Assembly (NCBI GenBank): GCA_937952215.1
Contig: CALFZH010000058.1
Location: 81,452-145,451 of the forward strand
Source: an uncultured bacterium
GTDB lineage: Bacteria > Planctomycetota > UBA1135 > UBA2386
Direction: 5' to 3'
DNA length: 64,000 nucleotides
Each line of letters opens with the position of its first letter. Position 1 is the stretch's first letter. Shown in pieces: positions 23,490 to 53,964 of the stretch. The position numbers and the translations under genes were made by a program. The notes under the pieces are model-generated. The model made no database searches and was not told the origin of the DNA. It worked only from the letters and a program-made list of their open reading frames with translations.

Positions 23490-23505
23490 ACGGCTTGGCG
23501 CCGCG

Positions 23506-25416
23506 TCAGCCCGGCGCGTAGCGGCGCCGTTCGTGGGCGGCGGCGGCTTCACGCAACGCCGCGAGCCGACGGGCGTCGGTCTGCGTCGCGCTGGCGCGGG
23601 CGAGTGCCTCGCGCGGCGTCTCGCCCGGCTGCAGCGCGAGGCCGGCGGCGCGCAGTGCCCGTTCGAGCGCCAGCACTTCGGGCGCCGCGCGTCGGCGCCG
23701 GCGCAACACGAGGAACGCGATCACGGCGACCGCGCCGACGCACGTGAGTGGCCGTTCGCGCGGCAGCGCCAGGGCAGCGGCGAGCCAGCGCGCGCGCGTC
23801 GCCTGGTCGAACGTCGTCACGGCCGTCCACCACGCTTCGAGCGTCTTGCGCAGGTCGTGCCACCAGCCGGTGGGGGACTCTGGTTCGGCGCGCACGTCCG
23901 CCGCTGGCGTCGCGTCGAACGTGTGCCACCGGCCGTCCTCGTCGAGCACTTCGACCCAGGCGTGCGCGTGTCGGCCACGCACGACGAACGAGCCGCTGCC
24001 CGCCTCCCGCTCGTGCACGAGCCAGCCGCCGACGAGGCGGCACGGCACGCCTTGCACGCGCAGCACCAGGGCCAGCGCCGTCGCGAAGTACTCGCAGTGC
24101 CCGGCACCATCGTTGGCCAGGAAGGCGCGCAGGTCGCGGGCGAAGCCGGGTCGGCCGGGCAGGCCGTAGCGACGGTTGTGCTGCAGCCAGTCGCTGGCCG
24201 CCGTTGCGCGCGCGAGTGCGTCCGGGGCCGGCGGCAGCAAGGCGCGCAGCTTGCCGGCGAGTTCGTGCACCGCGTCGGGCATGCCGGCCAGCGGCAGGGC
24301 GGTCATCACGCTGCGGACGCGTTCGGCGTTGCGAGCGGCTCCGGCGGTCGCGGCGACTTCGACGTCGAAGGCGAGCGGTGGGTGGGATCGCCCCTCGGCG
24401 TCGGTCAGGCGCAGGCAGCCATCCGAACGACCGTCGAGCAGCAACGACTCGTCGGCCGCCCCGGTCACGTGGCTCGCCGCCAGTGGTGTTGGCAGCCGCG
24501 TGCCGGCTGGCCCGGCGAACTGCACGCGCAACCGCGCGCGCGGCCCTTCCGGAAGACGCCGATGCAGGCTGCCGTCGGGGTGCCGTTCCCACGGCGGATC
24601 GCTCGCGAATCGCGAGCCGAACTGCCCCGCTTCCTGCGCCGACCAGCCAGTACCGTCGAAGCGGGAGAACGCGGTCGCGCGCCAGTGGGTCGGCACGTCG
24701 GTGGCCGGGCCAGCGGCCGGCACGATGTGGGCGAGAACTTCGTCGCCGGGACCGGACGCTCGCTCGTCGTCGATGCGGATGCGTTCGGCGAGACCGGCCT
24801 CGAACTGCCGCCGCAGCAAGGCGGCGTCGCCGAGCCAACCCTCGCGGCGGAAGTCGCGCGGCAGCAGCACGAACGCGGTCGCGGTCACGAGGCCGACGAC
24901 CAACGTGCGCGGCACGCAGTCGCGGAGGGCCGCACGGAGCAGGCGCGGATCGACCACGCTTTCCCTCGTCTGCAGCGCGTAGATCTGCAGCGTCGGCAGC
25001 AGGACCAGCGCGTGGGCCAGGAACAGCAGTGACCACGACAGGTCCGGCGCGAAGAACGCGGTCACGAACGCGACCAGGAACGAGTTGAAGAACAGCAGGT
25101 CCGGGCGTTGCCGCGCGCCGACGTTGTTCAGCAGGTGCACCTGGCAGAGCACCGCGAGCACGAGCCCGTCTTCGAGCATGTGCAGCAGACCGCTGGTCGT
25201 GGCGTGGGCGACCAGCAGCGCGAAGGCGACCAGCACACCGGTGTTCCACGCGAAGCGGTGCACGCGAAAGCGCTGCAGGCGCCGCAGCCACGGCGAGGCG
25301 AGCGTGAGCGCCCACATCGGCAGCATGCCGGCGGCGCCGACGACGCCGGTTGCCTGCACGAACCCGAGATCCAGCAGCGTCAAGGCCGCCAGCAGTGCGA
25401 ACAGCGACCGGCTCAT
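23506..25416 (-). CDS. transglutaminase-like protein with N-terminal polytopic DUF3488-type domain
   Basis: From ATG 25416 in ORF 23506..26391. Six or more TM helices, then DGAGHCEYFATALALVLRVQGVPCRLVGG...HAWVEVLDEDGRWHTFDATP (Cys-His-Asp core). Confidence 0.8.
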   Translation of the reverse strand: MSRSLFALLAALTLLDLGFVQATGVVGAAGMLPMWALTLASPWLRRLQRFRVHRFAWNTGVLVAFALLVAHATTSGLLHMLEDGLVLAVLCQVHLLNNVGARQRPDLLFFNSFLVAFVTAFFAPDLSWSLLFLAHALVLLPTLQIYALQTRESVVDPRLLRAALRDCVPRTLVVGLVTATAFVLLPRDFRREGWLGDAALLRRQFEAGLAERIRIDDERASGPGDEVLAHIVPAAGPATDVPTHWRATAFSRFDGTGWSAQEAGQFGSRFASDPPWERHPDGSLHRRLPEGPRARLRVQFAGPAGTRLPTPLAASHVTGAADESLLLDGRSDGCLRLTDAEGRSHPPLAFDVEVAATAGAARNAERVRSVMTALPLAGMPDAVHELAGKLRALLPPAPDALARATAASDWLQHNRRYGLPGRPGFARDLRAFLANDGAGHCEYFATALALVLRVQGVPCRLVGGWLVHEREAGSGSFVVRGRHAHAWVEVLDEDGRWHTFDATPAADVRAEPESPTGWWHDLRKTLEAWWTAVTTFDQATRARWLAAALALPRERPLTCVGAVAVIAFLVLRRRRRAAPEVLALERALRAAGLALQPGETPREALARASATQTDARRLAALREAAAAHERRRYAPG

Positions 25417-26300
25417 CGGCGGCCTCCGAGACCCGATGGCGGTGGTGCTTCGCGCGGCAGCGGTGCGGCGGTTGCGAGCCACCGTTGCACGGCGTCGAGC
25501 GGGTCCGCCGGCCGCACGGCGAGGTCGGTGTCCTGGCTGCACAGACGGAACTCGCGCCCCGCCGCGCGGGCCGCGTCGACGTTCGCCGCGGCGGTCGCGA
25601 GCGCCGTCTCGAGGGCATCGGCGTCGCCGCGACGATCGACGACGACGAGCGCAGCGTCGGTGCGTTCGGGCTCGAGCTCCTTGACGACCGGAACGCCGCG
25701 GCGCGCGGTCGCCTTCCAGTGCACGAGACCCACGGCGTCGCCGGCGCGGAACGGCCGCACGGCGGCGAGTTCGGCCGGGCGACCACTGGCGCCGCACGGC
25801 GACAGCGAGGCGGTCGCGCGTGACGAGTCCGGCCCGGTCACGAGCTCGGCGGTGACCGGCAGATCGACGCGGGCTTCGAACAGGCCGAGAGGGAAACGCG
25901 ACGCGATGCGGACCGCCGTGACCGCGGCGATGCCGCGCGGACGACCGCCCAGGTTGGCCGGCACGCGCGCGTCGGCGGCGACGATCGCCTGGGGCGCGAT
26001 CGGCGAAGCCCCGTCCGCGGTGACCAGCGCGACATCGAGTGCGTAGCGCGTGCGGCGGCAGCCGAGCGTGAGCTCGACCGGCCGCATGGCCCCGGCCTCG
26101 GCGTATCCCGCCGACAGGTGCTGCAGCGTGATCGCGCGCACGTTGCGCAGCGTCCACCACGCGCCGAGGGCACCGAGCGCCGCGCAGAACACGAGCAGCA
26201 GGAAGAACAGGTTGCTGTAGGCGGTCGCGAAGAACGCCGTCGCCATGGCGGCGAACAGCATGAGGCCCTTCCAGCCGAGCTCCGTCGGGCGGATGCGCAC
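25413..26300 (-). CDS. DUF58 domain protein
   Basis: ORF 25413..26300. Two N-terminal TM spans, FRAGDAVGLVHWKATARRGVPVVKELE motif. Its stop overlaps the next start (ATGA). Confidence 0.8.
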   Translation of the reverse strand: MRIRPTELGWKGLMLFAAMATAFFATAYSNLFFLLLVFCAALGALGAWWTLRNVRAITLQHLSAGYAEAGAMRPVELTLGCRRTRYALDVALVTADGASPIAPQAIVAADARVPANLGGRPRGIAAVTAVRIASRFPLGLFEARVDLPVTAELVTGPDSSRATASLSPCGASGRPAELAAVRPFRAGDAVGLVHWKATARRGVPVVKELEPERTDAALVVVDRRGDADALETALATAAANVDAARAAGREFRLCSQDTDLAVRPADPLDAVQRWLATAAPLPREAPPPSGLGGRR

Positions 26301-26305
26301 GGCGG

Positions 26306-27244
26306 TCAGAGCGGCACCGGCACGGTGCGCAGCAGCTCGGCGACGATCGCGCGGGCGTCGGCGTTGCCGCGTGCGAACACGCGATGCGCAAGGGCGGGCA
26401 GTGCGAGCGCCTTGAGGTCGTCCGGCAGCGCGTAGTCGCGCCCGTCGAGCAGGGCGCGGGCGCGCGCCAGCCGCAGCCAGGCCAGCGCAGCGCGTGGGCT
26501 GGCGCCGAGCTGCACGTCGCCGTGCCGGCGTGTCGCCTGCACGAGTGCCAACGCGTACTGCGCGACCGGCGTGGCCACCTGCACGGCGGCCGCCATCGCG
26601 CGCAACTGCAGCAGATCGCTCGTCGCGATCACCGGGGCGACGTCCGCGAGCCTGGCTTCGGGGTCGTCGCCGACGTAGAGCGCGAGCTCCTGCGCGGGCT
26701 CGGGGTAGGCGAGTTCGACGCGCACCGCGAAGCGATCGAGCGCTGCCTCCGGCACCGGCCAGGTACCGTGGAACTCGATCGGGTTGCGCGTCGCGATGAC
26801 CGTGAACGGCTGCCCGAGCTCGAGCGTGCGGCCTTCGACCGACACGTGCCCGCTCTCCATCGCCTCGAGCAGGCAGGACAGCGTGCGCGGGCTGGTGCGG
26901 TTGATCTCGTCGGCGAGCACGACGTTGGCGAACAGCGGCCCGCGCACGAACGAGAACTTGCCGAGGTCGGGACGCCAGACGGCGGTGCCGACGACGTCGC
27001 TCGGCATCAGGTCGTTGGTGAACTGGATGCGGCGGAACTCACCGTCGACGCACCGCGCCAGCGTGCGCGCGAGCAGCGTCTTGCCGATGCCGGGCATGCC
27101 CTCGAGCAGCACGTGACCGCCCGCGACCGTGGCGCAGACGAGCGGCTCGACGATGCCGGCGGGCAGCGACACGACCTGGGCCAGGTGGCGCTCGACGGCG
27201 GTCCGGATCGCGGCGGGTTCGAGGGTGCGGGTCGGCGCGGACAC
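26306..27244 (-). CDS. MoxR-family AAA+ ATPase
   Basis: Walker A GMPGIGKT, Walker B VVLADEINR, TRNPIEFHGTWPVPEAALDRF. Confidence 0.9.
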   Translation of the reverse strand: MSAPTRTLEPAAIRTAVERHLAQVVSLPAGIVEPLVCATVAGGHVLLEGMPGIGKTLLARTLARCVDGEFRRIQFTNDLMPSDVVGTAVWRPDLGKFSFVRGPLFANVVLADEINRTSPRTLSCLLEAMESGHVSVEGRTLELGQPFTVIATRNPIEFHGTWPVPEAALDRFAVRVELAYPEPAQELALYVGDDPEARLADVAPVIATSDLLQLRAMAAAVQVATPVAQYALALVQATRRHGDVQLGASPRAALAWLRLARARALLDGRDYALPDDLKALALPALAHRVFARGNADARAIVAELLRTVPVPL

Positions 27245-27331
27245 GTCCCTCTTTCGGCAGCCTGCGGGGGTGCGTCGGTAGCCAGCCGCGAGAGGCCGTT
27301 GGCAGCGCCGTTGCCGCGCCTCGCGGGCGGC

Positions 27332-27946
27332 TCAGTTGCGGCGATGGCGATCGCTCGCCGGGGGCTCGGGATCCTCGTCGTCGAGGTCCTCGTCGATCTC
27401 CTCTTCCTCCTCGTCAGCCGCGCCCTCGCTGGCCGGCGGCGCTTCGCGCAGCAGTTGCCGGAACCGCGGGTCCGTTCGCAGTGGATCGAGGTCGGGATCG
27501 TCGCGGGCGAAGTCACGGCAGTGCTCGTCGAGGCCGCACGCGAGCGTGAGTTCGTCGATCGCGCGGTCGTGTTCGCCGGCGAGCGCCAGGTAGCACGCGA
27601 GGTTGAAGTGCGCGACGTCCGAGCGGTGATCACGCAGCACGAGGGTCTCGAGGCAGCGGATCGCGCCCGGCAGGTCGCCGGCGCGCTTCCTGCACCACGC
27701 TTCGGTCAGGTCGATCCAGCTCTCCTCGGGTGCCGCCGTTCGCAGTTCGGCCAGGTCGGGCAGCGCGTCGCGGTAGTTGCCGAGCCGGGCCAGCGCGCGC
27801 ACGCGCATCGCCAGGCCGGCGGCGCGGGCCGTGGGCTCGGCGAGCAGCGGCCCGAGCAGGGCGATCGCGCGGTCGGGGCAGCGCAGGTCGAGCCAGCCGT
27901 CGATCTGGTCGGCGAGCCGCTGCAAGGCCGGGGGAACGTGGAACAC
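27332..27946 (-). CDS. TPR-like helical-repeat protein with acidic C-terminal tail
   Basis: ORF 27332..27946. Repeats such as ALARLGNYRDALPDL and AHFNLACYLALAGEHDRAIDEL. Tail ADEEEEEIDEDLDDEDPE. Confidence 0.5.
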   Translation of the reverse strand: MFHVPPALQRLADQIDGWLDLRCPDRAIALLGPLLAEPTARAAGLAMRVRALARLGNYRDALPDLAELRTAAPEESWIDLTEAWCRKRAGDLPGAIRCLETLVLRDHRSDVAHFNLACYLALAGEHDRAIDELTLACGLDEHCRDFARDDPDLDPLRTDPRFRQLLREAPPASEGAADEEEEEIDEDLDDEDPEPPASDRHRRN

Positions 27947-27982
27947 GGCGCGAGTGTCGCGTTGCCTGCGCGGCGACGCAAC

Positions 27983-28702
27983 TCAGGCCGGTGCTGGCGG
28001 CAGGCCGAGCAGCGCGTCGATCCGGCGCCAGATCGTCGGCGCGACGGTGTTCAGCCGGTGATCGCCGCCCGGCACCAACCACAGTTCCTTCTGCGCGCTC
28101 GCGATGGCGTCGAAGAACCGTTCGCTGGCGCGCGCCGGGATCACGTCATCGGCCGTGCCGTGCACGACCAGCGTCGGCACCTGCAGCCGCTTGCCGAGCC
28201 CGGCTTCGTCGAGGGCCTTGGCATCGGCAAGCACCTGCGGCGTGACCGTGAACGCCGTGCCCTCGCTGGTCCACATTCGCCCCCGCGCATCGAGGCGTTG
28301 TGCGAGGTTGCCGAGCAGACCGAAGGCGGGTGCGAGCAGCGCCAGGCCGCGCACCAGGTCCGGGCGCGCGGCGGCGACGTAGGCGCCGACGAGGCCGCCG
28401 AGGCTCGAACCGACGATGACCGTCGGCCGGTGTCCTTCGAGCAGTCGGACCACGTCGTCGATCACGTGGCTCACCGGCACCTGGCCGAGTCGTCCCGACG
28501 AGTCGCCCTGGCCGCGCAGGTCGATGCGGCGGAACCCGCGTCCCTGCCGCTCGGCGTGCGCGAGCAGCGAGCCGCTCTTCTCGCCGGTTCGCACGGCCCC
28601 GAGTCCGTGCAGGTAGAGCCACGGCGGCGAGGCGCCTGCGAGTTCGTCGCCGACCAGGAACTCGCCGTTGCCGAGTTCGAACCGGAAGGTCCGTGTGCTC
28701 AC
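27983..28702 (-). CDS. alpha/beta hydrolase
   Basis: GTG 28702 overlaps the upstream TGA (GTGA). LYLHGLG, nucleophile elbow GSSLGG, VVHGTADDV, GGDHRL. Confidence 0.75.
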   Translation of the reverse strand: MSTRTFRFELGNGEFLVGDELAGASPPWLYLHGLGAVRTGEKSGSLLAHAERQGRGFRRIDLRGQGDSSGRLGQVPVSHVIDDVVRLLEGHRPTVIVGSSLGGLVGAYVAAARPDLVRGLALLAPAFGLLGNLAQRLDARGRMWTSEGTAFTVTPQVLADAKALDEAGLGKRLQVPTLVVHGTADDVIPARASERFFDAIASAQKELWLVPGGDHRLNTVAPTIWRRIDALLGLPPAPA

Positions 28703-30939
28703 ACGATGCGTTCGATCGCTTCGATGCGCACGGCGACGGGGCCGTGCTGACCCGGGATCTCGCTGGTCTCGCCGACGCCCTTGCCGAGCAGTCCCTGCGC
28801 GATCGGCGCCAGGTAGTTGACCGTCTGGTCGTCGGTGGCGTCCCACGGCCCGAGCACGCGCCAGGTCGTGCGCGCGCCGCTGGCAGTCTCGGCGACGGTG
28901 ACCTTGGTGCCGGGGGCGACGCGGTCGTTCGGCACGTCCTGGTCTTCGATCAGGCGCGCGCTGCGGATCTGCTGGTCCATGTCGGTGGCGCGCCCGGTGA
29001 GGTTGCGCTGCTCCTCCATCGCCGACTCCCATTCGCTGTTCTCGCTGAGGTCGCCGAGCGCTGCCGCCGCGCCGATCGCCTTGCTGTTCGCCGGGATCTT
29101 CTCCTCGACGATCACGCGATACTCCTCCTTGATCCGCCGCAGACCTTCGCGCGTGGTGAAGATCTGGTCCTTCTCCCAGAACGGCAGCTCGGGCTTGGCG
29201 TGCAGGTCCGGGAAGTGCTTGAAGACGACGTCGTCGATCTGGTCGACGATCTCCGCCGGGAAGTCCTCGCCCGAACGCTTGACGATGCCGAGGTAGTGCG
29301 CGAGGTCGTCGCGGGAGATGCCGTCGAGCGAGCGGTTGAGCAGGCCCTTCTTGCCGCTCAGCAGGCTGGTGAGCCGCCCGAGCAACCGGCTGTGCACCTG
29401 GTTCTTCTTGCGGTTCTCGTTCAGGATGCGCGCGAGGTGCAGCAGCACGCGGCCGATCGCGATCGGGCTCGGGCGGCGTTCGTCGGCATCGAACACGCCG
29501 TCGCCGTAGAGCTTCCCGTACAGGTAGGTCAGCAGCGGGAAACGCTTCGGGTACGGCGCGACGCGGTCCCACTGCGCGAGCGTCGACGCACCTTCGCCAT
29601 GGGCGACCAAGGCGTCGACCACGTGCTCGACCACCGAGTCAGGCCACTCGCACAGCGCCGCGGCGCTCCGCTGGGCCCAGTCGTTGCCGAGTGCCTGCGG
29701 CAGGAGTTCGATCGCGTGCTCGCGCGACGCCTGCGTCGCCAACCGGTCGATGGCCGTGGGGCGCAGGCCGCCGTCGTCCTTGGTCAGCAGCGCGCGCAGT
29801 TCTTGCGCGGCCGGCACCGAGGCCTTCCGGCCGTGCTCCTCGAGGAACAGGATTCCGTCGAGCACGTGCGCATGGGCGGCCTTCTTCTCGGCGATCGCCT
29901 GCTCGACGACCGTCGTCGCCAGATCGAGGATCTGCGCGCGCATCTCGGCATCCTCGCCGCGCGCCAGGTAGTCGCGCAGCACGCCGATGCGCTGGCCGAG
30001 GTCGTTCTGGTGCGACAGCGCTGCCGTCGCTTCCTCGGCGACGCTGACCGGCTTGTCGCGCACGACGAACGTCGGCCGGGTCGTCGATCCTTCGACGCGC
30101 AGCCACGGATCCTTGGCCGCCGCGGCCTTGGCGCGCTTCCAGAACGACGCCCAGTCCTTCTCGGCGATCAGTGCCGGCGACAGTTCGTGCTTGAGCTGCT
30201 GGCTGGTGATCGTGCCGCGGTAGAGCGCCGCAGCGCGACGGATCAGGCCCGCGGGGTTGTTCTCGGCCTCGGCCTTCAGCTCGCCCATGCGCTGCAGCTT
30301 CATCGCGCGCAGGTCCTGCGCGTCGAGCGGCTTGAAGCGCGACAACAGCGTCTCGAGCGGGAACGCCTCGCGCCGACCGGTCGCGAAGTGCACGGTCACT
30401 TCCATCGTGCCCGCGGTGAAGTCCTCGACCGTGGCCTCACCCCAGCCGGCGGCGTGGTAGACGACGTAGCCCCGGGTGAAGCGGCGCAGGCGGTCGAACT
30501 CGAGGATCGAGGCGACGGTCGCGGCGGTCGCGAGCCCGGCGCGCGCCTTCATCACCGGCAGCCACTGCTCGTCGGCGTAGCGCTTGTCGATCAGGCTGGC
30601 GACGGTGCGCGCCAGCGCGTCGTTGTGGGCGCTGCGGCGCATGACGCGGAAGCCGAGTTCGAGCGCGGCGTCGGTCTGGTCGCGCGCGGCGAGCGCATCG
30701 ATCATCGCGGTCGCCATGACCAGCGCGCGGCTCGCCATCTCCTTCTCGCACAGCAGATCGATGACCGCGGCGTAGCTCGGCGTTTCGGCGGCGGTCGGCG
30801 CGGCGACTGCCTTGTTCCATCCCGATTCGAGGGAGTCGAGCTGCAGGGAACGCGCGAATTGAACGAGATCGTGCGTCAACGTCGTGACCCTTGGGGGGTG
30901 AAGAGCGGACAAATGGGGCGGGGACGATACCCCGGCCAC
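28699..30939 (-). CDS. GreA/GreB-family transcript cleavage factor with about 580-aa N-terminal extension
   Basis: The C-terminal 160 aa is a complete Gre module: coiled-coil tip GDLSENSEWESAMEEQ, then VAPGTKVTV...YLAPIAQGLLGKGVGE. Start uncertain (GTG 30939 or TTG 30879 preceded by AAGGG). Confidence 0.75.
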   Translation of the reverse strand: MAGVSSPPHLSALHPPRVTTLTHDLVQFARSLQLDSLESGWNKAVAAPTAAETPSYAAVIDLLCEKEMASRALVMATAMIDALAARDQTDAALELGFRVMRRSAHNDALARTVASLIDKRYADEQWLPVMKARAGLATAATVASILEFDRLRRFTRGYVVYHAAGWGEATVEDFTAGTMEVTVHFATGRREAFPLETLLSRFKPLDAQDLRAMKLQRMGELKAEAENNPAGLIRRAAALYRGTITSQQLKHELSPALIAEKDWASFWKRAKAAAAKDPWLRVEGSTTRPTFVVRDKPVSVAEEATAALSHQNDLGQRIGVLRDYLARGEDAEMRAQILDLATTVVEQAIAEKKAAHAHVLDGILFLEEHGRKASVPAAQELRALLTKDDGGLRPTAIDRLATQASREHAIELLPQALGNDWAQRSAAALCEWPDSVVEHVVDALVAHGEGASTLAQWDRVAPYPKRFPLLTYLYGKLYGDGVFDADERRPSPIAIGRVLLHLARILNENRKKNQVHSRLLGRLTSLLSGKKGLLNRSLDGISRDDLAHYLGIVKRSGEDFPAEIVDQIDDVVFKHFPDLHAKPELPFWEKDQIFTTREGLRRIKEEYRVIVEEKIPANSKAIGAAAALGDLSENSEWESAMEEQRNLTGRATDMDQQIRSARLIEDQDVPNDRVAPGTKVTVAETASGARTTWRVLGPWDATDDQTVNYLAPIAQGLLGKGVGETSEIPGQHGPVAVRIEAIERIV

Positions 30940-30982: not shown

Positions 30983-31600
30983 CTACTCGGCCAGGCGCGC
31001 GATCAGCGTGTTGACGTTGATCGCCGAGCAGGACTCGTCGTGGGAGGCCATCGGTGCGGTCTCCAGCACCTCGTCGCTGCCCACCAGGATCACGTAGAAC
31101 TCCTGACCGTACTGCGAACGGAAGGACACGACCTTCTTCAGGATCGGCGCCTGCGTCTCCTCGACGGCCTCGATCACGATGCCCTTGCCCTCGCGGCCGC
31201 GGCCGCGCAGCACGATCATCGGCGCGTAGGCGGCCACCCGGTTGTCCTCGAAGCGGACCTCGTAGTGTCGCGGGCTGTGGCTGTGCACCACGCCGGCCAT
31301 CCCGAGGCGGTTGCAGAGGTCCTGTTCGAGCTTGCTCGACAGCAGCCGGCCGCCGCAGCGACCAAAGCCAGCCCCGCCGCCGCCGTGGGCCATGAGGACG
31401 TCGTCGTCGTCGAGGTTGGCGACGGCGCGCGGGACGAACGGGGCCCGGGCGCTGGCTGCACGCGCCAGCACCTTGCCCTTGGCGGCGGGAGCCGTGGCGG
31501 ACTTCTTGGCGGTGCGGGCAGGGGACGAAGGCTTGGCCGCCTTCTTGGCGGTGGTGGGATTCGCCTTCTTCGGCGAAGCCTTGCTGGTCTTGGAGGTCAT
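30983..31600 (-). CDS. protein with histone-H1-like Lys/Ala/Pro-rich N-terminal tail and a globular C-terminal domain
   Basis: MTSKTSKASPKKANPTTAKKAAKPSSPARTAKKSATAPAAKGK..., then a non-biased 130-aa domain. Confidence 0.55.
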   Translation of the reverse strand: MTSKTSKASPKKANPTTAKKAAKPSSPARTAKKSATAPAAKGKVLARAASARAPFVPRAVANLDDDDVLMAHGGGGAGFGRCGGRLLSSKLEQDLCNRLGMAGVVHSHSPRHYEVRFEDNRVAAYAPMIVLRGRGREGKGIVIEAVEETQAPILKKVVSFRSQYGQEFYVILVGSDEVLETAPMASHDESCSAINVNTLIARLAE

Positions 31601-31807
31601 GGTTGGAAGGGCGGCGGGCTCTGCGACGCGCGAACCGGATGCGCCTGCTGCCGTCCACCGGCATCAGGTCCCGACTCAGGGCAATCGACGGCCGCGGCAA
31701 TCGCCGGGGTTTCTGGGGCGGCAGTCTAGCAGGAAGTCGCAGGCTCGAAAGTCCCGCGGCGGTGGCTCCGTTGCGCCGGACGGTGGTCGTGGCCGACACT
31801 GGTCGAG

Positions 31808-32380
31808 ATGTCGAAAGCCGCACCCGGACCCGCCGAATCGTCGCCGGCGACGGCCCCACCCGATCGGGTGTTCACGCCTGCGCTCGTCGTCTTCCTGGGG
31901 ATCGTGGCGTTGGCGCTCGCCTACTTCGCCTGGCAGCGCTGGCCCTGTCCGGACCTGCGCGGGGCCATCGTCATGCTGGCCGACGGCGACCTCGACGGCG
32001 ACGAACGCCACCGCATGCTGCGGCGCGTGGTGGCCGACGCCCGGCAGGCCACCGGTGTCACCGATCGGTGGGCGGGCCTGCTCGCCGCGGTGGCCCTCGC
32101 CGACGAGCCGGCATGGCGGGAGTTGCTGCGGACGTTCGGATCGGCGGCGCTGCCACGGGAAGTGCCGCCGCCGGCGGAGCGCGAGTTCCTGCATCTGGGC
32201 GACCGCATGCTCGGCAGCGTGCTCGCCGCTGCGGTCGCCGAAGCGGCGGGTGACCGTGAGGCCGCCATCGCGTCGTGGACGGTCGCGCAGGCGCAGGCGA
32301 GGCTCGCGGCGCAGCCGTTCGCCCAGCAGCTCGCGACGGCATCCCTCGCGCGACTCGGGGGCGCGGCGACCGGTCGCTGA
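31808..32380 (+). CDS. hypothetical single-pass membrane protein
   Basis: ORF 31808..32380. TM span FTPALVVFLGIVALALAYFAW. Immediately upstream of the PilT-like pair. Confidence 0.45.
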   Translation: MSKAAPGPAESSPATAPPDRVFTPALVVFLGIVALALAYFAWQRWPCPDLRGAIVMLADGDLDGDERHRMLRRVVADARQATGVTDRWAGLLAAVALADEPAWRELLRTFGSAALPREVPPPAEREFLHLGDRMLGSVLAAAVAEAAGDREAAIASWTVAQAQARLAAQPFAQQLATASLARLGGAATGR

Positions 32381-32443
32381 CCCCGGCGTCTCAAGGCTCG
32401 TTCGTCGGCCGGTCGATGGGGGCGAACGGAGACGACCGGCAGC

Positions 32444-33736
32444 ATGGACGACATTCGCTTGGGGACCCTCCTCCTGGAGGGTGGGATCGTTGACGAAGCC
32501 GGGCTCGAGCGGTGCCTGGCCATCCAGTCGCTGACCAACCACGGTCGGCCGATCGGCCAGATCCTCGTCGATCAGGGGATGATCTCGGCCGACGCCCTGC
32601 AACGCGTTCTGCAGTTGCAGCGGGAACGGCGGCAGGAGGCCGCGTCGTCCCTTCGCGCCAACGACCTGGCGGCGGACGCCCTGCTGACACTGGCTGCCAA
32701 CCAAGGCGCGACCGAACTCGTGGTCAGCGAGGGCCGGCGCGCGTGCATCCGCACCGGCATGCAATGGCGGCCGGTGACCGACACTCCGTTGTCGGGGCCG
32801 GAGGTCTGGGACTTCGCCCGCACTGTGATGGGCGACGGCGTGCTCGAAGCGCTCGCCGAACGGCACTGCGTGGTCCAGCCGTGGCAAGTGAGTGGTGCCG
32901 GCCACGGGTTGGCCACGGCGTTTCGTCAACTCGAAGGCGTCGCGGTGCGCATCGCGTTCACGCCCGCTGCCGTCGCGGACCCCGCGATGGCCGGCGTGTC
33001 GCCGGCGATCGTCGACGTGATCCGTGGCGGCAAGGGGCTCGTGCTGCTGGTCGGCGAACGCGGCCTGTTGCGCGCGGAGACCGTGGCGTCACTGCTGCCG
33101 GTCGCGGCCGCCGACCAAGGGCAGTACGTGGTCGTCGTCGACGACGAACCGCTGCCGTTGCCGGCCGATCGGGCCCTGGTGGTGCGGCGCCGTTTTGGCC
33201 TCACGCCGGCTGCCCGCGCCGAAGCGTTGCGCGCGGCCGTCGACGAGGATCCCGACGCGCTCGTGGTCGCCGACATCGGCGACCCGGCGACGTTCGAGAT
33301 CGCGCTGCGCGCCGCCGAAAGCGGACGTCTCGTGATCGCCTGGCTCGACGCTGCCAACGCCACGCAGGCCTTGGCGCGCCTGCTCGGCTTCCCGACCACG
33401 CACGACGCCGCGGGCGTGCGCGGCACGCTGGCGGCAGCGCTGCGGGCCGTGCTGGTGCGGCAGCAGTTGCCGGATGCGAGTGGGACCGGCACCGTCGCTG
33501 CTTCCGAACTGCTGGTCGTCGACGGCGCGGTGCGCGATGCGATCCGCGCCGGCCAACTCGGCGACATCGCGCTGCTCGTGCGCGCCGAAGGGCGCAATGG
33601 CGGCCACTCGCTCGATCGCAGCATGCTCGACCTCGTGGCTTCGGGCCGGGTGCGCCTCGAGGACGTGTTCTCACGGGCCGAAGAACGGCTCTGGCTGCTC
33701 GACCGTGCTCGCGAGATGCAGGCAAAGGCGAACTGA
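32444..33736 (+). CDS. MshEN (T2SSE_N) domain protein fused to a degenerate PilT-like ATPase domain
   Basis: Residues 5-28 RLGTLLLEGGIVDEAGLERCLAIQ and 36-59 PIGQILVDQGMISADALQRVLQLQ fit the MshEN motif. The Walker A position reads LLVGERGLLRAET. Confidence 0.7.
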   Translation: MDDIRLGTLLLEGGIVDEAGLERCLAIQSLTNHGRPIGQILVDQGMISADALQRVLQLQRERRQEAASSLRANDLAADALLTLAANQGATELVVSEGRRACIRTGMQWRPVTDTPLSGPEVWDFARTVMGDGVLEALAERHCVVQPWQVSGAGHGLATAFRQLEGVAVRIAFTPAAVADPAMAGVSPAIVDVIRGGKGLVLLVGERGLLRAETVASLLPVAAADQGQYVVVVDDEPLPLPADRALVVRRRFGLTPAARAEALRAAVDEDPDALVVADIGDPATFEIALRAAESGRLVIAWLDAANATQALARLLGFPTTHDAAGVRGTLAAALRAVLVRQQLPDASGTGTVAASELLVVDGAVRDAIRAGQLGDIALLVRAEGRNGGHSLDRSMLDLVASGRVRLEDVFSRAEERLWLLDRAREMQAKAN

Positions 33737-33737
33737 C

Positions 33738-34808
33738 ATGGACCACCAACGACTCGAGGATCTGCTGGCGGCGATGGCGCGGCTCGGCGCTTCGGCGCTG
33801 CACCTCGTTCCGGGCCGGGCGCCGGCATTGCGCCTCCAGCGGCGATTCGTGCACGGCGACGAAGCGACGGTGCAGAAGGCGGATGTCGACGAGATGATGC
33901 GCGACCTGCTGTTCGCCGACCACCGCGCGCAGCTGGCCGAACGAGGCCACGTCGAAGTGCTCTACGTCGCGCGCAGTCGCATGCGCTACCGCGCCGCGAT
34001 CGCACAGGTTGCCGGCCAGTCGTCGGTCGTGCTGCGGCCGCTGCCGGTGACGCCGCCGCAGCTCGGCGCCCTCGACTTGCCTTCGCAGGTCGCCGGGTTC
34101 GCGCAGGCGCGTTCCGGTCTCGTGCTGGTCGTGGGATTCCCCGGCGCTGGCAAGAGCACGACGCTCGGCGGGATCGTCGACGCGCTCAACCAGGATGCCG
34201 GGCGGCACGTGGTGACGATCGAGCAGCGCATCACGTTCGTGCACCAACTCGGGCCGGCGTTGCTGCACCAACGCGAGGTCGGCAAGCACGTCGCGACCGC
34301 GGCCCTGGGCATTCGGCAGGCGATGGCGGCCGGCGCCGACGTCATCGTCGTCGACGCCCTCGTCGATCGCGACGCGCTCTTGGCCGCGACCGCGGCGGCG
34401 GAGTCCGGGTGCCTCGTGCTGGCCGGCGTCGAAGCCGGTTCGATCACGGGCGCGCTCGGCACGTTGGTCGGCATGGCCACCGAAGACGAGCGGCCGGCGC
34501 TGCGAACAGCTCTCGCGGCCGTCCTGCGCGGCGGCGTCGCCCAGCGCCTCTTGCCGCGGGCTCACCGGCCCGGCCGCGTGCCGGTCGCCGAGGTGCTGCT
34601 GTGCAACGGCGCCGCACGCGCGGCGATCCGCGACGGCGACTTCGCGGCGCTGTCGACGATCATGCAGAAGTGCCGGGGACTCGGCATGCAGACTGCCGAC
34701 GAGGCGCTGCGCGCGCTGCTCGATCACCACGTGATCTCGGCCGACGAGGCGCTGCTGCACGCGCAGGACCGGGACGCCGTGCTCGCCGGCGCTCGGCCGG
34801 GGCGCTGA
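33738..34808 (+). CDS. PilT/PilU-family ATPase paralog (Walker A intact, catalytic Glu and His box replaced)
   Basis: From ATG 33738 (1 nt after the upstream stop). GFPGAGKST; VVTIEQRITFVH; DVIVVDALVDRD instead of ILVGEMRD; CLVLAGVEAG instead of HLVxxTLHT. Confidence 0.75.
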   Translation: MDHQRLEDLLAAMARLGASALHLVPGRAPALRLQRRFVHGDEATVQKADVDEMMRDLLFADHRAQLAERGHVEVLYVARSRMRYRAAIAQVAGQSSVVLRPLPVTPPQLGALDLPSQVAGFAQARSGLVLVVGFPGAGKSTTLGGIVDALNQDAGRHVVTIEQRITFVHQLGPALLHQREVGKHVATAALGIRQAMAAGADVIVVDALVDRDALLAATAAAESGCLVLAGVEAGSITGALGTLVGMATEDERPALRTALAAVLRGGVAQRLLPRAHRPGRVPVAEVLLCNGAARAAIRDGDFAALSTIMQKCRGLGMQTADEALRALLDHHVISADEALLHAQDRDAVLAGARPGR

Positions 34809-34815
34809 GACGGCC

Positions 34816-35580
34816 TCAGCCGAGGTCGAGCCCGCGCTCTTCCTCGTCGCTGATGCCCTCGCCGAACGAACTGCCGAGGTAGACGGCTCGCACCTGCGGG
34901 TCGTTGACGATCGTGCGCGAATCGCCTTCGGCGATGACCTTGCCCTGGTTGATGATGTAGGCGCGGTCGGTGATGCGCAGCGTCGCGATCACGTTGTGCT
35001 CGGTGATCAGGATCGCGATGCCGGTGCGCGCGAGCGCGCCGAGGATCTGCTGGATCTCCTCCACCGTGATCGGATCGACGCCGGCGAACGGCTCGTCGAG
35101 CAGCAGCAGGCGCGGTTCGGTCGCCAGCGCGCGCGCGATCTCGAGCCGCCGCTTCTCGCCGCCGGACATCGTCTCGGCGATCGAGTCGGCGACGTGCGTC
35201 AGTTGCAGGTCGTGCAGCAGCGCCTTGGCGCGTTCTTCGCGCGGTTGCCGGCGCATGCCGCGCGCCTCGAGCACGCAGCGCACGTTGTCGATCGCCGACA
35301 TCTTCTTGAACACCGACTCCTGCTGCGCGAGGTAGCCGAGTCCGGCGCGCGCACGCTGGTGCATCGCGAGCTTCGTGACGTCCTTGCCGCCGAGCGTCAC
35401 GCGCCCCTCGTCGGGCGTGACCATGCCGACGACCATGCGGAACGTCGTCGTCTTGCCGGCGCCGTTGGGGCCGAGCAAGCCGACGATCTCGCCTTCGCTG
35501 ACGTGGATGCTGGCGTGGTCGACGACCCGGCGGCCGCGGTAGGCCTTCACCAAGTCGTGCGTGCGCAGGATCTCGGTCAT
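34816..35580 (-). CDS. lptB: LPS export ABC transporter ATP-binding protein LptB
   Basis: MTEILRTHDLVKAYRGRRVV, GPNGAGKTT, LSGGEKRRLEIARAL, LLLDEPFAGVDP. ATG overlaps the lepB stop (ATGA). Confidence 0.85.
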   Translation of the reverse strand: MTEILRTHDLVKAYRGRRVVDHASIHVSEGEIVGLLGPNGAGKTTTFRMVVGMVTPDEGRVTLGGKDVTKLAMHQRARAGLGYLAQQESVFKKMSAIDNVRCVLEARGMRRQPREERAKALLHDLQLTHVADSIAETMSGGEKRRLEIARALATEPRLLLLDEPFAGVDPITVEEIQQILGALARTGIAILITEHNVIATLRITDRAYIINQGKVIAEGDSRTIVNDPQVRAVYLGSSFGEGISDEEERGLDLG

Positions 35581-52364: not shown

Positions 52365-52526
52365 CTGCACATGCTGCGCGCGCCTGTCGCAGGGAAGTCC
52401 GGTGCAACACCGGCGCTGTCCCGCAGCTGTCACCGGGTACGAACGTCCAACAGCCACTGGTGGTCCGTGTCGGATCCCCGGGAAGGCGGACCAGTAGGTC
52501 GATCCGGAAGCCAGAACACCTGCGCC
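52365..52526 (+). promoter_or_regulatory. cobalamin (B12) riboswitch
   Basis: AGGGAAGTCCGGTGCAACACCGG (from 52391), GCTGTCCCGCAGCTGT, CAGCCACTGG, GGGAAGGCGG, and B12 box GAAGCCAGAACACCTGCGCC ending at 52526. All are in the canonical order on the + strand. Confidence 0.85.
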
Positions 52527-52590
52527 CGGCCGGCCCTCGCGGGCCGCTCCGATCCTCCGCGCGGCGCGCTACACGCCGACTGGAGACCGA

Positions 52591-53964
52591 ATGTCTGTTC
52601 CGACCGCTCTCGGGCGGCGCGCCCTTGCGCCCCGCACCCCCTTCTTCCGTTCGTCCTTCGCCGCGGCGCTGCTCGCCGCCCTGGCGCCGATCGCGGCGCA
52701 GCAGGTGCCCGAAGGACTCGCCGCCACCACGGCGCGTGTGACCGCGGCCACGAGCCTGGCGCTGCACACCGCCGCCGGCGTCGTGACGTTCGACACCGGC
52801 AGCGTCCTGCTGACGCCACCGGGCCAGCCGTCGCAGAACCTGCTGACGCTGAGTGGCACCGTGTTCGGTTCGTTCCTGCTGCAGACCGACGCCGCGCACG
52901 TGCTGTTCGGGCACACGGGCTTCGGCCCGAATGGCGCCAACGACCGCGTGTGGCTCGTGCCGCTGCAGGGCCCGTCGCCGGCATTGCCGCTGGCTGCCGT
53001 GCCGTTCAACTACGACGCGGTGATGCTGACGGCGACGAGCGTGCTCGTGTCGGCTCGCGCCGGCGGCTTCGCTGTCGCGCAGAACGACCTCGTCGTCCTC
53101 GATCTCGCCACCGGCGGCACCCAGACCATCGCGACGCTGCCGGGCGCCTCGGGCCCGGTCGTGATCGCACCGAACGGCGACGTCCTGTATGCGACCGCAT
53201 CCCCGTCGTTCCCGGCCCCGCCCGGGGCCGTGGAGATCCTGCGGTTCCTGCGTGTGGACATCGACGACGCGATCGCCAACCAGACGGTGCTCGGCATCGC
53301 CGACGCGCAGGTGGTTTGCACCGCCCTCGATGCGGCGAGCGACTTCGCCATCGACGACGACGGCGATCTGCTGTTCGTCGACTGGATGAACGCGCGCGTC
53401 AGCGAGATCAGCGACGTGGACACCATGCCGACGCTCGTCCCGGCGGTCGTCGACTACACGAATGCGCCCACGTTCCCGGCGACGCTGCAGTTCGTGCCGG
53501 GCTCGCAGCAGGGTCAGTTCGAGCCGTTCCAGCCGACCAACGGGCGCCTGGTCGTCTTCGAGTCGGACTACTGGAGCACGACCCGATTGCGCACGGTCAC
53601 TGCGGCCCCGGCGTCGCTGCACGTCAGCGGCGGTGCGGTGATCCCCACCGGTCCGTTCACGATCGCTGCGACGAAAGGGCCGAGCCTCGGTCTCGGTGTC
53701 ATCGCGTTCACGCTCGGCCACGGGCCGGGACCGGTCGCCGCCAGCGTGCCCGGCTACGAGCAGTTGTTGTGGCTCGCGCCTGCCGTGCTGAACGGCAACC
53801 CGATCCAGGTGCTCGTGCCGTTCGACGCCGCCGGCTCGGCATCGCTGGTGGTGCCCAACCCGGGCTTCGCGTCGGCGATCACGGCGACGACGCAGGTGGT
53901 GTTCTTGTCGACCACGGCCGTGCTCGGCGCGACCAACCCGGTCGCGATCACGATCGGCCAGTGA
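52591..53964 (+). CDS. secreted beta-propeller-like hypothetical protein (riboswitch-controlled)
   Basis: SD GGAG (52582-52585). Signal peptide ...FAAALLAALAPIAAQQ. Blade-like repeats VVIAPNGDVLYATAS and DDDGDLLFVDWMNARVSEIS. Confidence 0.6.
   Translation: MSVPTALGRRALAPRTPFFRSSFAAALLAALAPIAAQQVPEGLAATTARVTAATSLALHTAAGVVTFDTGSVLLTPPGQPSQNLLTLSGTVFGSFLLQTDAAHVLFGHTGFGPNGANDRVWLVPLQGPSPALPLAAVPFNYDAVMLTATSVLVSARAGGFAVAQNDLVVLDLATGGTQTIATLPGASGPVVIAPNGDVLYATASPSFPAPPGAVEILRFLRVDIDDAIANQTVLGIADAQVVCTALDAASDFAIDDDGDLLFVDWMNARVSEISDVDTMPTLVPAVVDYTNAPTFPATLQFVPGSQQGQFEPFQPTNGRLVVFESDYWSTTRLRTVTAAPASLHVSGGAVIPTGPFTIAATKGPSLGLGVIAFTLGHGPGPVAASVPGYEQLLWLAPAVLNGNPIQVLVPFDAAGSASLVVPNPGFASAITATTQVVFLSTTAVLGATNPVAITIGQ

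Follow-up and report, generated by a model that had tools for sequence, protein, structure and literature searches.

The closest described counterpart of the locus analysed here is the pilT-pilU pair of Vibrio cholerae and Pseudomonas aeruginosa, in which two PilT-fold genes lie next to each other on one strand; in Pseudomonas, the pair does not lie with the rest of the pilus genes. Four elements of PilT are described as essential to its activity, namely Walker A Lys, Walker B Glu, Asp box and His box (PMC5065972). PilU depends on PilT, and PilT proteins that are dead for ATP binding or hydrolysis still support PilU-dependent retraction (PMC6762196, PMC6821130). Control of type IV pili by cyclic di-GMP (c-di-GMP), a second messenger, is placed on the extension side in the papers that we searched (MshE, PilB, PilF and FimX-PilZ). 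Here, we examined a 64-kb stretch of DNA (contig CALFZH010000058.1, hereafter the window; G+C content about 71%) from an uncultured sludge planctomycete, in which three genes on the (+) strand form a module: gene U for a small membrane protein, gene A for a PilT-like protein with a putative c-di-GMP-binding MshEN_N domain, and gene B for a short PilT-like protein (Table 1). Judged from their sequences, A and B appear to form a tandem of the pilT-pilU kind whose first member bears an MshEN_N sensor, present here in a degenerate form. In contrast to pilT-pilU, A carries the N-terminal MshEN_N and is naturally and permanently dead in the clade of the window, B lacks the His box and, in the window, also the catalytic Glu, both proteins score under the cutoff of the PilT family model TIGR01420, and it is homology that links the pair to pili.

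MshEN on PilT-type proteins was not described in the papers searched, where it occurs on MshE, PilB, PilF, GspE and glycosyltransferases. An earlier note on this DNA, made from the sequence alone, did not recognize the module as a described one; in the papers searched, this holds for the variant, whereas the pilT-pilU-like gene pair itself is known. MshE, PilB, PilF and GspE share with A a two-motif four-helix module at the N-terminus of an ATPase of the secretion superfamily. However, these are extension-type enzymes of 560-890 aa with a full MshEN (N and C subdomains) and active sites, whereas A has the N subdomain only, a 7-residue spacer between the motifs, and a PilT-type (retraction-type) core with no catalytic residues. 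In NfrB-type glycosyltransferases, the minimal MshEN_N by itself switches a partner other than PilB in response to c-di-GMP, as it may do in A, but there the domain is C-terminal and its output is a glycosyltransferase instead of a PilT fold. Under FimX-PilZ-PilB and PilZ-type control, an accessory domain or protein reads c-di-GMP and acts on the pilus ATPase, and one relative of B likewise has a fused PilZ domain; there, however, the sensor is a protein of its own on the extension ATPase, whereas the putative sensor of A is fused to a dead PilT-like protein.

The N-terminal module of A was recognized by the NCBIfam model NF053729 (c-di-GMP_motif, MshE-related), which matched residues 5-59 with the whole model (positions 1-53 of 53) at 41.6 bits (cutoff, 38 bits) and E = 8.1e-11, so that a chance match is excluded. 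The Pfam search of A at E <= 1 gave no T2SSE_N/MshEN match, only T2SSE and a weak DUF4388, and the NCBIfam models PRK11234 and PRK15489 (NfrB-type glycosyltransferases) matched residues 4-72 weakly. The published 24-residue MshEN motif reads (R/K/L)LGxx(L/V/I)(L/V/I)xxG(L/V/I)(L/V/I)xxxxLxxxLxxQ, with position 1 widened to R/K/L by later work (PMC11731258), and the relaxed motif of the original authors permits [RKPN] at this position (PMC5013675). Motif I of A matched all the fixed positions. The second copy that the earlier note had read after a 7-residue spacer is also present, with a sole mismatch, Pro36 at position 1, which is within the relaxed motif. The spacer (SLTNHGR; family consensus x-L-T-G-x-x-R) is longer than the standard one of 5 residues in the 53-residue unit, and the NF053729 alignment takes a 2-residue insertion there.

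Conservation was examined in 117 homologues of A and 110 homologues of B, and gene context in 49 related lineages. R5, L6, G7, L10, L11, L21, Q28, P36, G38 and Q59 are invariant among the A homologues, and L25, L41 and L56 are near-invariant (114-116/117). The AlphaFold2 (AF2) model of residues 1-78 showed a four-helix unit with a predicted local distance difference test score (pLDDT) of 81. When this unit was compared with 350,542 PDB chains using Foldseek, the top eight hits were all MshE (5HTL) or PilF GSPII domains, superposing over 54-61 alignment columns with root-mean-square deviations of 1.2-1.4 Å for the best four and up to 3.1 Å for the others; the identity to MshE and PilF GSPII-B was 38-43% over 55-56 aligned residues. 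The Foldseek E-values were weak (0.04-0.6) because the domain is small. Overall, these data bear out the earlier claim of a real MshEN-type module on A, with the family model above its cutoff and a predicted structure that fits c-di-GMP-bound MshE at 1.2-1.4 Å. Of MshEN, A holds the N subdomain only (53-60 aa), and the PilT core begins about 18 residues further on.

The rest of A has a PilT fold, consisting of N2D and a RecA-like C-terminal domain (CTD) without the PilB-type N1D. It was aligned by phmmer with Aquifex PilT (2ewv) over the full length (E = 1.6e-31), and TIGR01420 (pilT_fam) matched it end to end (model positions 4-340) at 147 bits, below the cutoff of 319.1 bits. The AF2 model of full-length A (pLDDT 86, predicted template-modelling score 0.78) reached target template-modelling scores of 0.8-0.88 to PilT4, PilU and PilT in Foldseek, those to PilT4 (6ojx and 6ok2) being 0.86-0.88. 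Motif positions (Walker A, Asp box, Walker B and His box) were assigned by phmmer against PDB structures of PilT, and the catalytic degeneracy of A in the P-loop, Walker B and His box, as proposed in the earlier note, was confirmed residue by residue on these structures. Besides the replacements listed in Table 1, the Walker A Lys has become Arg, the Walker A Ser/Thr is also gone, the Asp-box position reads VVDDEPLP, and the GRFRxN Arg pair has lost its second Arg, the first being variable. The replacing residues are themselves conserved. The P-loop consensus of the A family is G-E-R-G-[ILV]-G-R-[ASG]-[ED], with E205 and R206 in 116/117 homologues and R210 in 112/117, and D277, R295 and D302 are found in 116, 117 and 106 of the 117, respectively. 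In total, A has 85 near-invariant positions, the replaced motif residues among them, and the ratio of nonsynonymous to synonymous substitution rates (dN/dS) is 0.05-0.31 for both A and B. Since the replacement motifs are conserved in 117 homologues under such dN/dS values, A is a selectively maintained pseudo-ATPase that shows no decay.

The partner B is closer to PilT, aligning with 2ewv over its full length (E = 1.7e-45) and with TIGR01420 end to end at 241.6 bits, which is still under the cutoff. Alignment of the B protein of the window supported the earlier reading that Walker A is kept, the Walker B Glu is gone and so is the His box. This degeneracy characterizes a few lineages, that of the window among them, and is not a family trait: the Walker A Lys (K139) is kept in 103/110 homologues, and the acidic Walker B residue is Glu in 86/110 and Asp in 14, with about 10 scattered members having lost it. 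Only the His box is lost throughout (110/110; GCLVFAGVEAGS), with C225 in 110/110 homologues and E232 in 98/110. The GRFRxN Arg pair is kept (R83 in 110/110 and R85 in 109/110). The Asp box reads TIED[SA]I[QE]F in the majority of the family and is more degenerate in the window sub-lineage, and the loss of the Walker B Glu is common to the window B and its nearest relatives (P0123 and P0124; IVVDRL). As the Glu is kept in 86/110 homologues and the acidic residue is lost in about 10, hydrolysis by B seems to be dispensable in some lineages and usually retained. The Walker B of the window sub-lineage (P0123, P0124 and the locus L007) reads IVVD[AR]L, with an Asp at the Gly position and the Glu lost one residue further on; other B members hold both Asp and Glu (IVVDEIRD). 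In the window sub-lineage, the Asp at the Gly position might partly replace the Glu.

Table 1 Features of the U-A-B module, with positions in the 64-kb window.
Feature	Position	Strand	Evidence
U, 190-aa single-pass membrane protein	31808..32380	+	one hydrophobic helix; 63 nt 5' of A
Gene A, MshEN_N-PilT-like pseudo-ATPase, 430 aa	32444..33736	+	HMM, phmmer, AF2, alignment
MshEN_N module of A, residues 5-59, putative c-di-GMP-binding	32456..32620	+	NF053729, AF2, conservation
MshEN motif I, RLGTLLLEGGIVDEAGLERCLAIQ, 24 residues	32456..32527	+	sequence
MshEN motif II, PIGQILVDQGMISADALQRVLQLQ, 24 residues	32549..32620	+	sequence
PilT-fold core of A (N2D + CTD), residues 79-414	32678..33685	+	phmmer, Foldseek
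Degenerate P-loop of A, GERGLLRAE for canonical GPTGSGKST	33053..33079	+	alignment
Walker B position of A, LVVADIGD (VADIGD for VGEMRD); Asp277 for catalytic Glu (E204 in PilT)	33260..33283	+	alignment
His-box position of A, GRLVIAWLDA for GHLVFGTLHT; both His replaced (R295, D302)	33323..33352	+	alignment
Gene B, short PilT-like, 356 aa	33738..34808	+	TIGR01420, phmmer
Walker A of B, intact, GFPGAGKST	34134..34160	+	alignment
Asp-box position of B, TIEQRITF for TIEDPIEY	34215..34238	+	alignment
Walker B position of B, IVVDALVD; Ala207 for catalytic Glu	34344..34367	+	alignment
His-box position of B, GCLVLAGVEA; both His replaced	34407..34436	+	alignment

The two genes are tightly paired. The stop codon of A (TGA, 33734-36) and the ATG of B (33738) are separated by 1 nt, as the earlier note had observed, and the gap is between -1 and +8 nt in 45/49 lineages. 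More than 117 homologues of A (48-93% identity) were found, only in uncultured Planctomycetota, and the B family is likewise confined to these. The module occurs in 50 GTDB species, none of them represented by an isolate, and in about 50 species the reading frames of A and B are unbroken.

Searching 1.84 billion representatives with a profile placed the pair in a wider family. The search returned proteins of about 430-460 aa that align with A along the full length and form a graded series, several of them catalytically intact. With respect to the motifs, the series runs from fully intact members (L061, L063 and L064) through intermediate ones (L062, L051 and L003) to the window clade, and the relatedness of the pair to intact PilT/PilU pairs is descent-like. 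In L061 and L063, the two intact pairs scanned, both partners are above the TIGR01420 cutoff (393-417 bits) and the long member is also above that of NF053729; against TIGR01420, scores of 348-417 bits were obtained for the scanned planctomycete relatives that are intact. The intact long form makes up dozens of clusters, all from metagenome-assembled genomes (MAGs). Five distant long forms were looked up, and in 5/5 a short PilT-like gene lies immediately 3', with no pilus genes within 10 kb. At L065:11312-12760, the short partner has 482 aa and a C-terminal PilZ, so that both members of this tandem carry c-di-GMP receptor modules. The neighbour-joining (NJ) trees of the long partners and of the short ones mirror one another. 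Hence, the pair is not the isolated oddity it had been taken for, as tandems of an MshEN_N-PilT and a short PilT are widespread in Planctomycetota and some members are intact. Outside this phylum, single chains that hold two complete PilT modules in about 720-750 aa (P0260, P0261, P0265, P0266, P0424 and P0431) were observed in Chondromyces, other Deltaproteobacteria and Victivallaceae; they have two Walker A motifs and mostly two His boxes, being natural fusions of two PilT-like units.

On these grounds, we propose that A-B is the degenerate branch of a pilT-pilU-like tandem specific to Planctomycetota, in which a c-di-GMP-sensing adaptor, A, works with a nucleotide-dependent partner, B, and the target is the pilus base; we give this explanation about an even chance. 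A would bind c-di-GMP via its MshEN_N and act, as a catalytically silent PilT-like ring, as the sensor or adaptor. B is cast as the nucleotide-dependent partner because Walker A and the Arg pair are kept and the catalytic Glu is present in most species; it would bind ATP and, in most species, possibly hydrolyse it slowly or weakly. The two genes are translationally coupled and their proteins presumably belong to one complex. By analogy with ATPase-dead PilT, alongside which PilU can still act on the pilus machine, A-B may dock on or release a membrane platform, most economically the base of a type IV pilus, and pilus dynamics would then track the c-di-GMP level. For the window lineage, a c-di-GMP- and ATP-binding switch or brake appears likelier than a motor because both partners are without the catalytic base.

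Several points weigh against this proposal. The model of a dead adaptor with a live motor is not literally applicable in the window, because B there is also without the catalytic Glu. No B homologue has kept the His box. Homology is the only link to type IV pili, because no pilus gene was seen near the 50-odd loci. A flagellin gene after B in 33/49 lineages hints at another target. The 7-residue spacer and the Pro at the start of motif II depart from the standard MshEN unit, and the binding of c-di-GMP by A is a prediction from sequence and structural modelling. Moreover, a nesting of the degenerate pairs within the intact ones was not robustly recovered in the NJ tree, which long branches may distort.

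The isolation of the pair had been regarded in the earlier note as a sign of a new role. No pilus or type II secretion system (T2SS) genes are indeed found in the scanned open reading frames (ORFs) of the window, nor do flagellar or GGDEF/EAL genes occur among them, and no pil gene lies beside the pair, within 10 kb, at any of the 50-odd loci examined. However, this location says little, because the layout mirrors that of pilT-pilU and the fully intact relatives are just as isolated. The wider tandem holds bona fide members of the PilT/PilU family, so that a repurposing away from pilus retraction is no more than a possibility.

Other explanations were weighed against the same evidence. It is very unlikely that A and B are an ordinary active PilT/PilU retraction pair, with the substitutions tolerated and both proteins hydrolysing ATP and retracting pili. 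Both do align end to end with PilT in a pilT-pilU layout, Asp206 stands beside the lost Glu in B, and most B homologues keep the Glu. But A has neither the Lys nor the Ser/Thr of Walker A, and its Walker B Glu, its two His and its second Arg are gone too, residues described as essential (PMC5065972), and A and B are far under the TIGR01420 cutoff while the intact relatives are above it. The opposite explanation, that they are decaying paralogues or annotation artefacts without function, could draw on the loss of catalytic motifs in both proteins and on the Walker B Glu of B, which has been lost repeatedly and independently; it is the only alternative that is clearly excluded, given the intact frames in about 50 species, the low dN/dS, the near-invariant positions of A that include the replaced residues, and the confident AF2 model.

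A different target is hinted at by the gene next after B, which in 33/49 lineages encodes a stand-alone bacterial flagellin (Flagellin_N + Flagellin_C, about 275 aa) and lies on the same strand at a distance of 115-420 nt (for example, L001:12718-13548 and L003:12536-13360, with 31 further loci), the DNA between it and lptB being variable. The pair might thus have left the pilus system and become a flagellum-linked c-di-GMP effector that controls flagellar function or the export or expression of flagellin in the switch between swimming and attached life, which we consider unlikely. No flagellin gene directly follows B in the window, and the window and L007, the only examined sub-lineage without the Walker B Glu and Asp-box motif of B, both lack the adjacent flagellin, in line with such an effector. 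However, flagellin adjacency did not correlate with the motif state of B over the 49 loci beyond this sub-lineage. The GRAD-type gene, the 205-aa gene, U, A, B, lptB and the signal peptidase gene are collinear across the clade, and since the whole neighbourhood is collinear, the adjacency may be owed to common descent alone. Nearby there is no further flagellar gene, the five distant tandems have no flagellin beside them, and a PilT-fold protein that acts on the bacterial flagellum is not known to us. Improbable to a similar degree is a repurposing of A and B, together with U, into a new membrane-associated signalling device of three parts, without relation to pili or flagella. In its favour, U is collinear with A and B in the 40/49 lineages in which it can be detected, it shows conserved motifs and belongs to no known family, and the strong conservation of the replaced motif residues of A points to a conformation or binding surface that is new and fixed. 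Against it, tblastn misses U in the deepest branches and no U-like gene was seen at the distant tandems (gene tables were read, with no search), the domain of U is predicted to be periplasmic whereas A and B are cytoplasmic, and the U-A gap of 58-150 nt is uncoupled, unlike that of A-B. Combining elements of these alternatives, A-B could also be a c-di-GMP-gated, non-hydrolysing PilT-fold double ring that works off the type IV pilus on another machine, be it the flagellum or a platform that involves U, which we regard as rather doubtful.

An MshEN on a PilT-type protein would place c-di-GMP on the retraction side, on an intact ATPase in some Planctomycetota and on a permanently dead one here. 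The dead A is a natural counterpart of the laboratory ATPase-dead PilT that still docks PilU, and could reveal a role of the PilT ring besides burning ATP. The series from intact to dead pairs provides a comparative set for the conversion of a motor ATPase into a signalling pseudoenzyme. If the off-pilus double ring were true, the secretion-ATPase superfamily would have its first pseudo-motor that acts as a pure second-messenger switch. As all carriers are uncultured, the value of the system is for now comparative and biochemical.

U was named in the earlier note as the only partner of the pair. It is indeed a single-pass membrane protein, consisting of a basic N-terminal stretch, one transmembrane helix and a helical domain of about 130 aa with a conserved LxDGDLDxxER, and it gave no Pfam, NCBIfam or PDB match. 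By the positive-inside rule, its sequence suggests an N-in, C-out topology. A U homologue was found by tblastn at the same position in 40/49 lineages and was undetected in the deepest branches of the clade; at five more distant tandems no U-like gene was seen in the gene tables and the one sequence read, with no search made. U is clade-specific and, with a conserved domain that probably lies in the periplasm, is questionable as a direct partner of A and B.

The conserved gene order around the module is a GRAD-type GreA-like gene (-), a 205-aa gene (-), U, A and B (+), lptB and a signal peptidase gene (-). In the window, lptB (34819..35580, 254 aa) adjoins B directly. The DNA of the window is also present in a planctomycete MAG, GCA_002343845.1, in which lptB (L004:12373-12883) is short or broken, with about 136 bp less, and was called as an 82-aa fragment; the intact 254-aa lptB is found in the window and in a JGI contig (L005:12373-13137), and the difference is probably one of assembly. 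Metagenomes containing the window DNA came from bioreactors and activated sludge and, more weakly, from biofilm, sand and soil, and the gene was not found in RNA-seq runs. All the strings quoted by the earlier note were present in the sequence at the positions it gave. A scan of 31500..35000 for sigma-70 promoters and terminators found nothing and is uninformative at 71% G+C. Near the module, Rfam detected neither a c-di-GMP riboswitch nor any other RNA; its sole match in the window was a cobalamin riboswitch (RF00174, 52391..52521 (+), 81.7 bits, E = 1.4e-18), which runs into a stop-to-stop frame (52498..53964) that has no Pfam match. A defence-system reading was dropped, since PADLOC gave no match.

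Upstream of U, the divergent 205-aa gene (30983..31600, -) encodes a protein whose C-terminal domain is conserved and whose N-terminal tail is rich in Lys/Ala/Pro and resembles histone H1. It gave no Pfam, NCBIfam, PADLOC or PDB match, and it adjoins the GRAD gene in every related locus that reaches that far upstream. The latter gene (28699..30939, -) encodes a long GreA-like factor of 746 aa whose C-terminus consists of GreA_GreB_N and GreA_GreB; its homologues have HTH_GRAD, and it is conserved beside the module. Further upstream of the GRAD gene, at about 23500..28000 (-), genes for a MoxR-type AAA ATPase, a DUF58 protein, a TgpA-like transglutaminase, a TPR protein and an alpha/beta hydrolase were observed, which are also conserved in the relatives.

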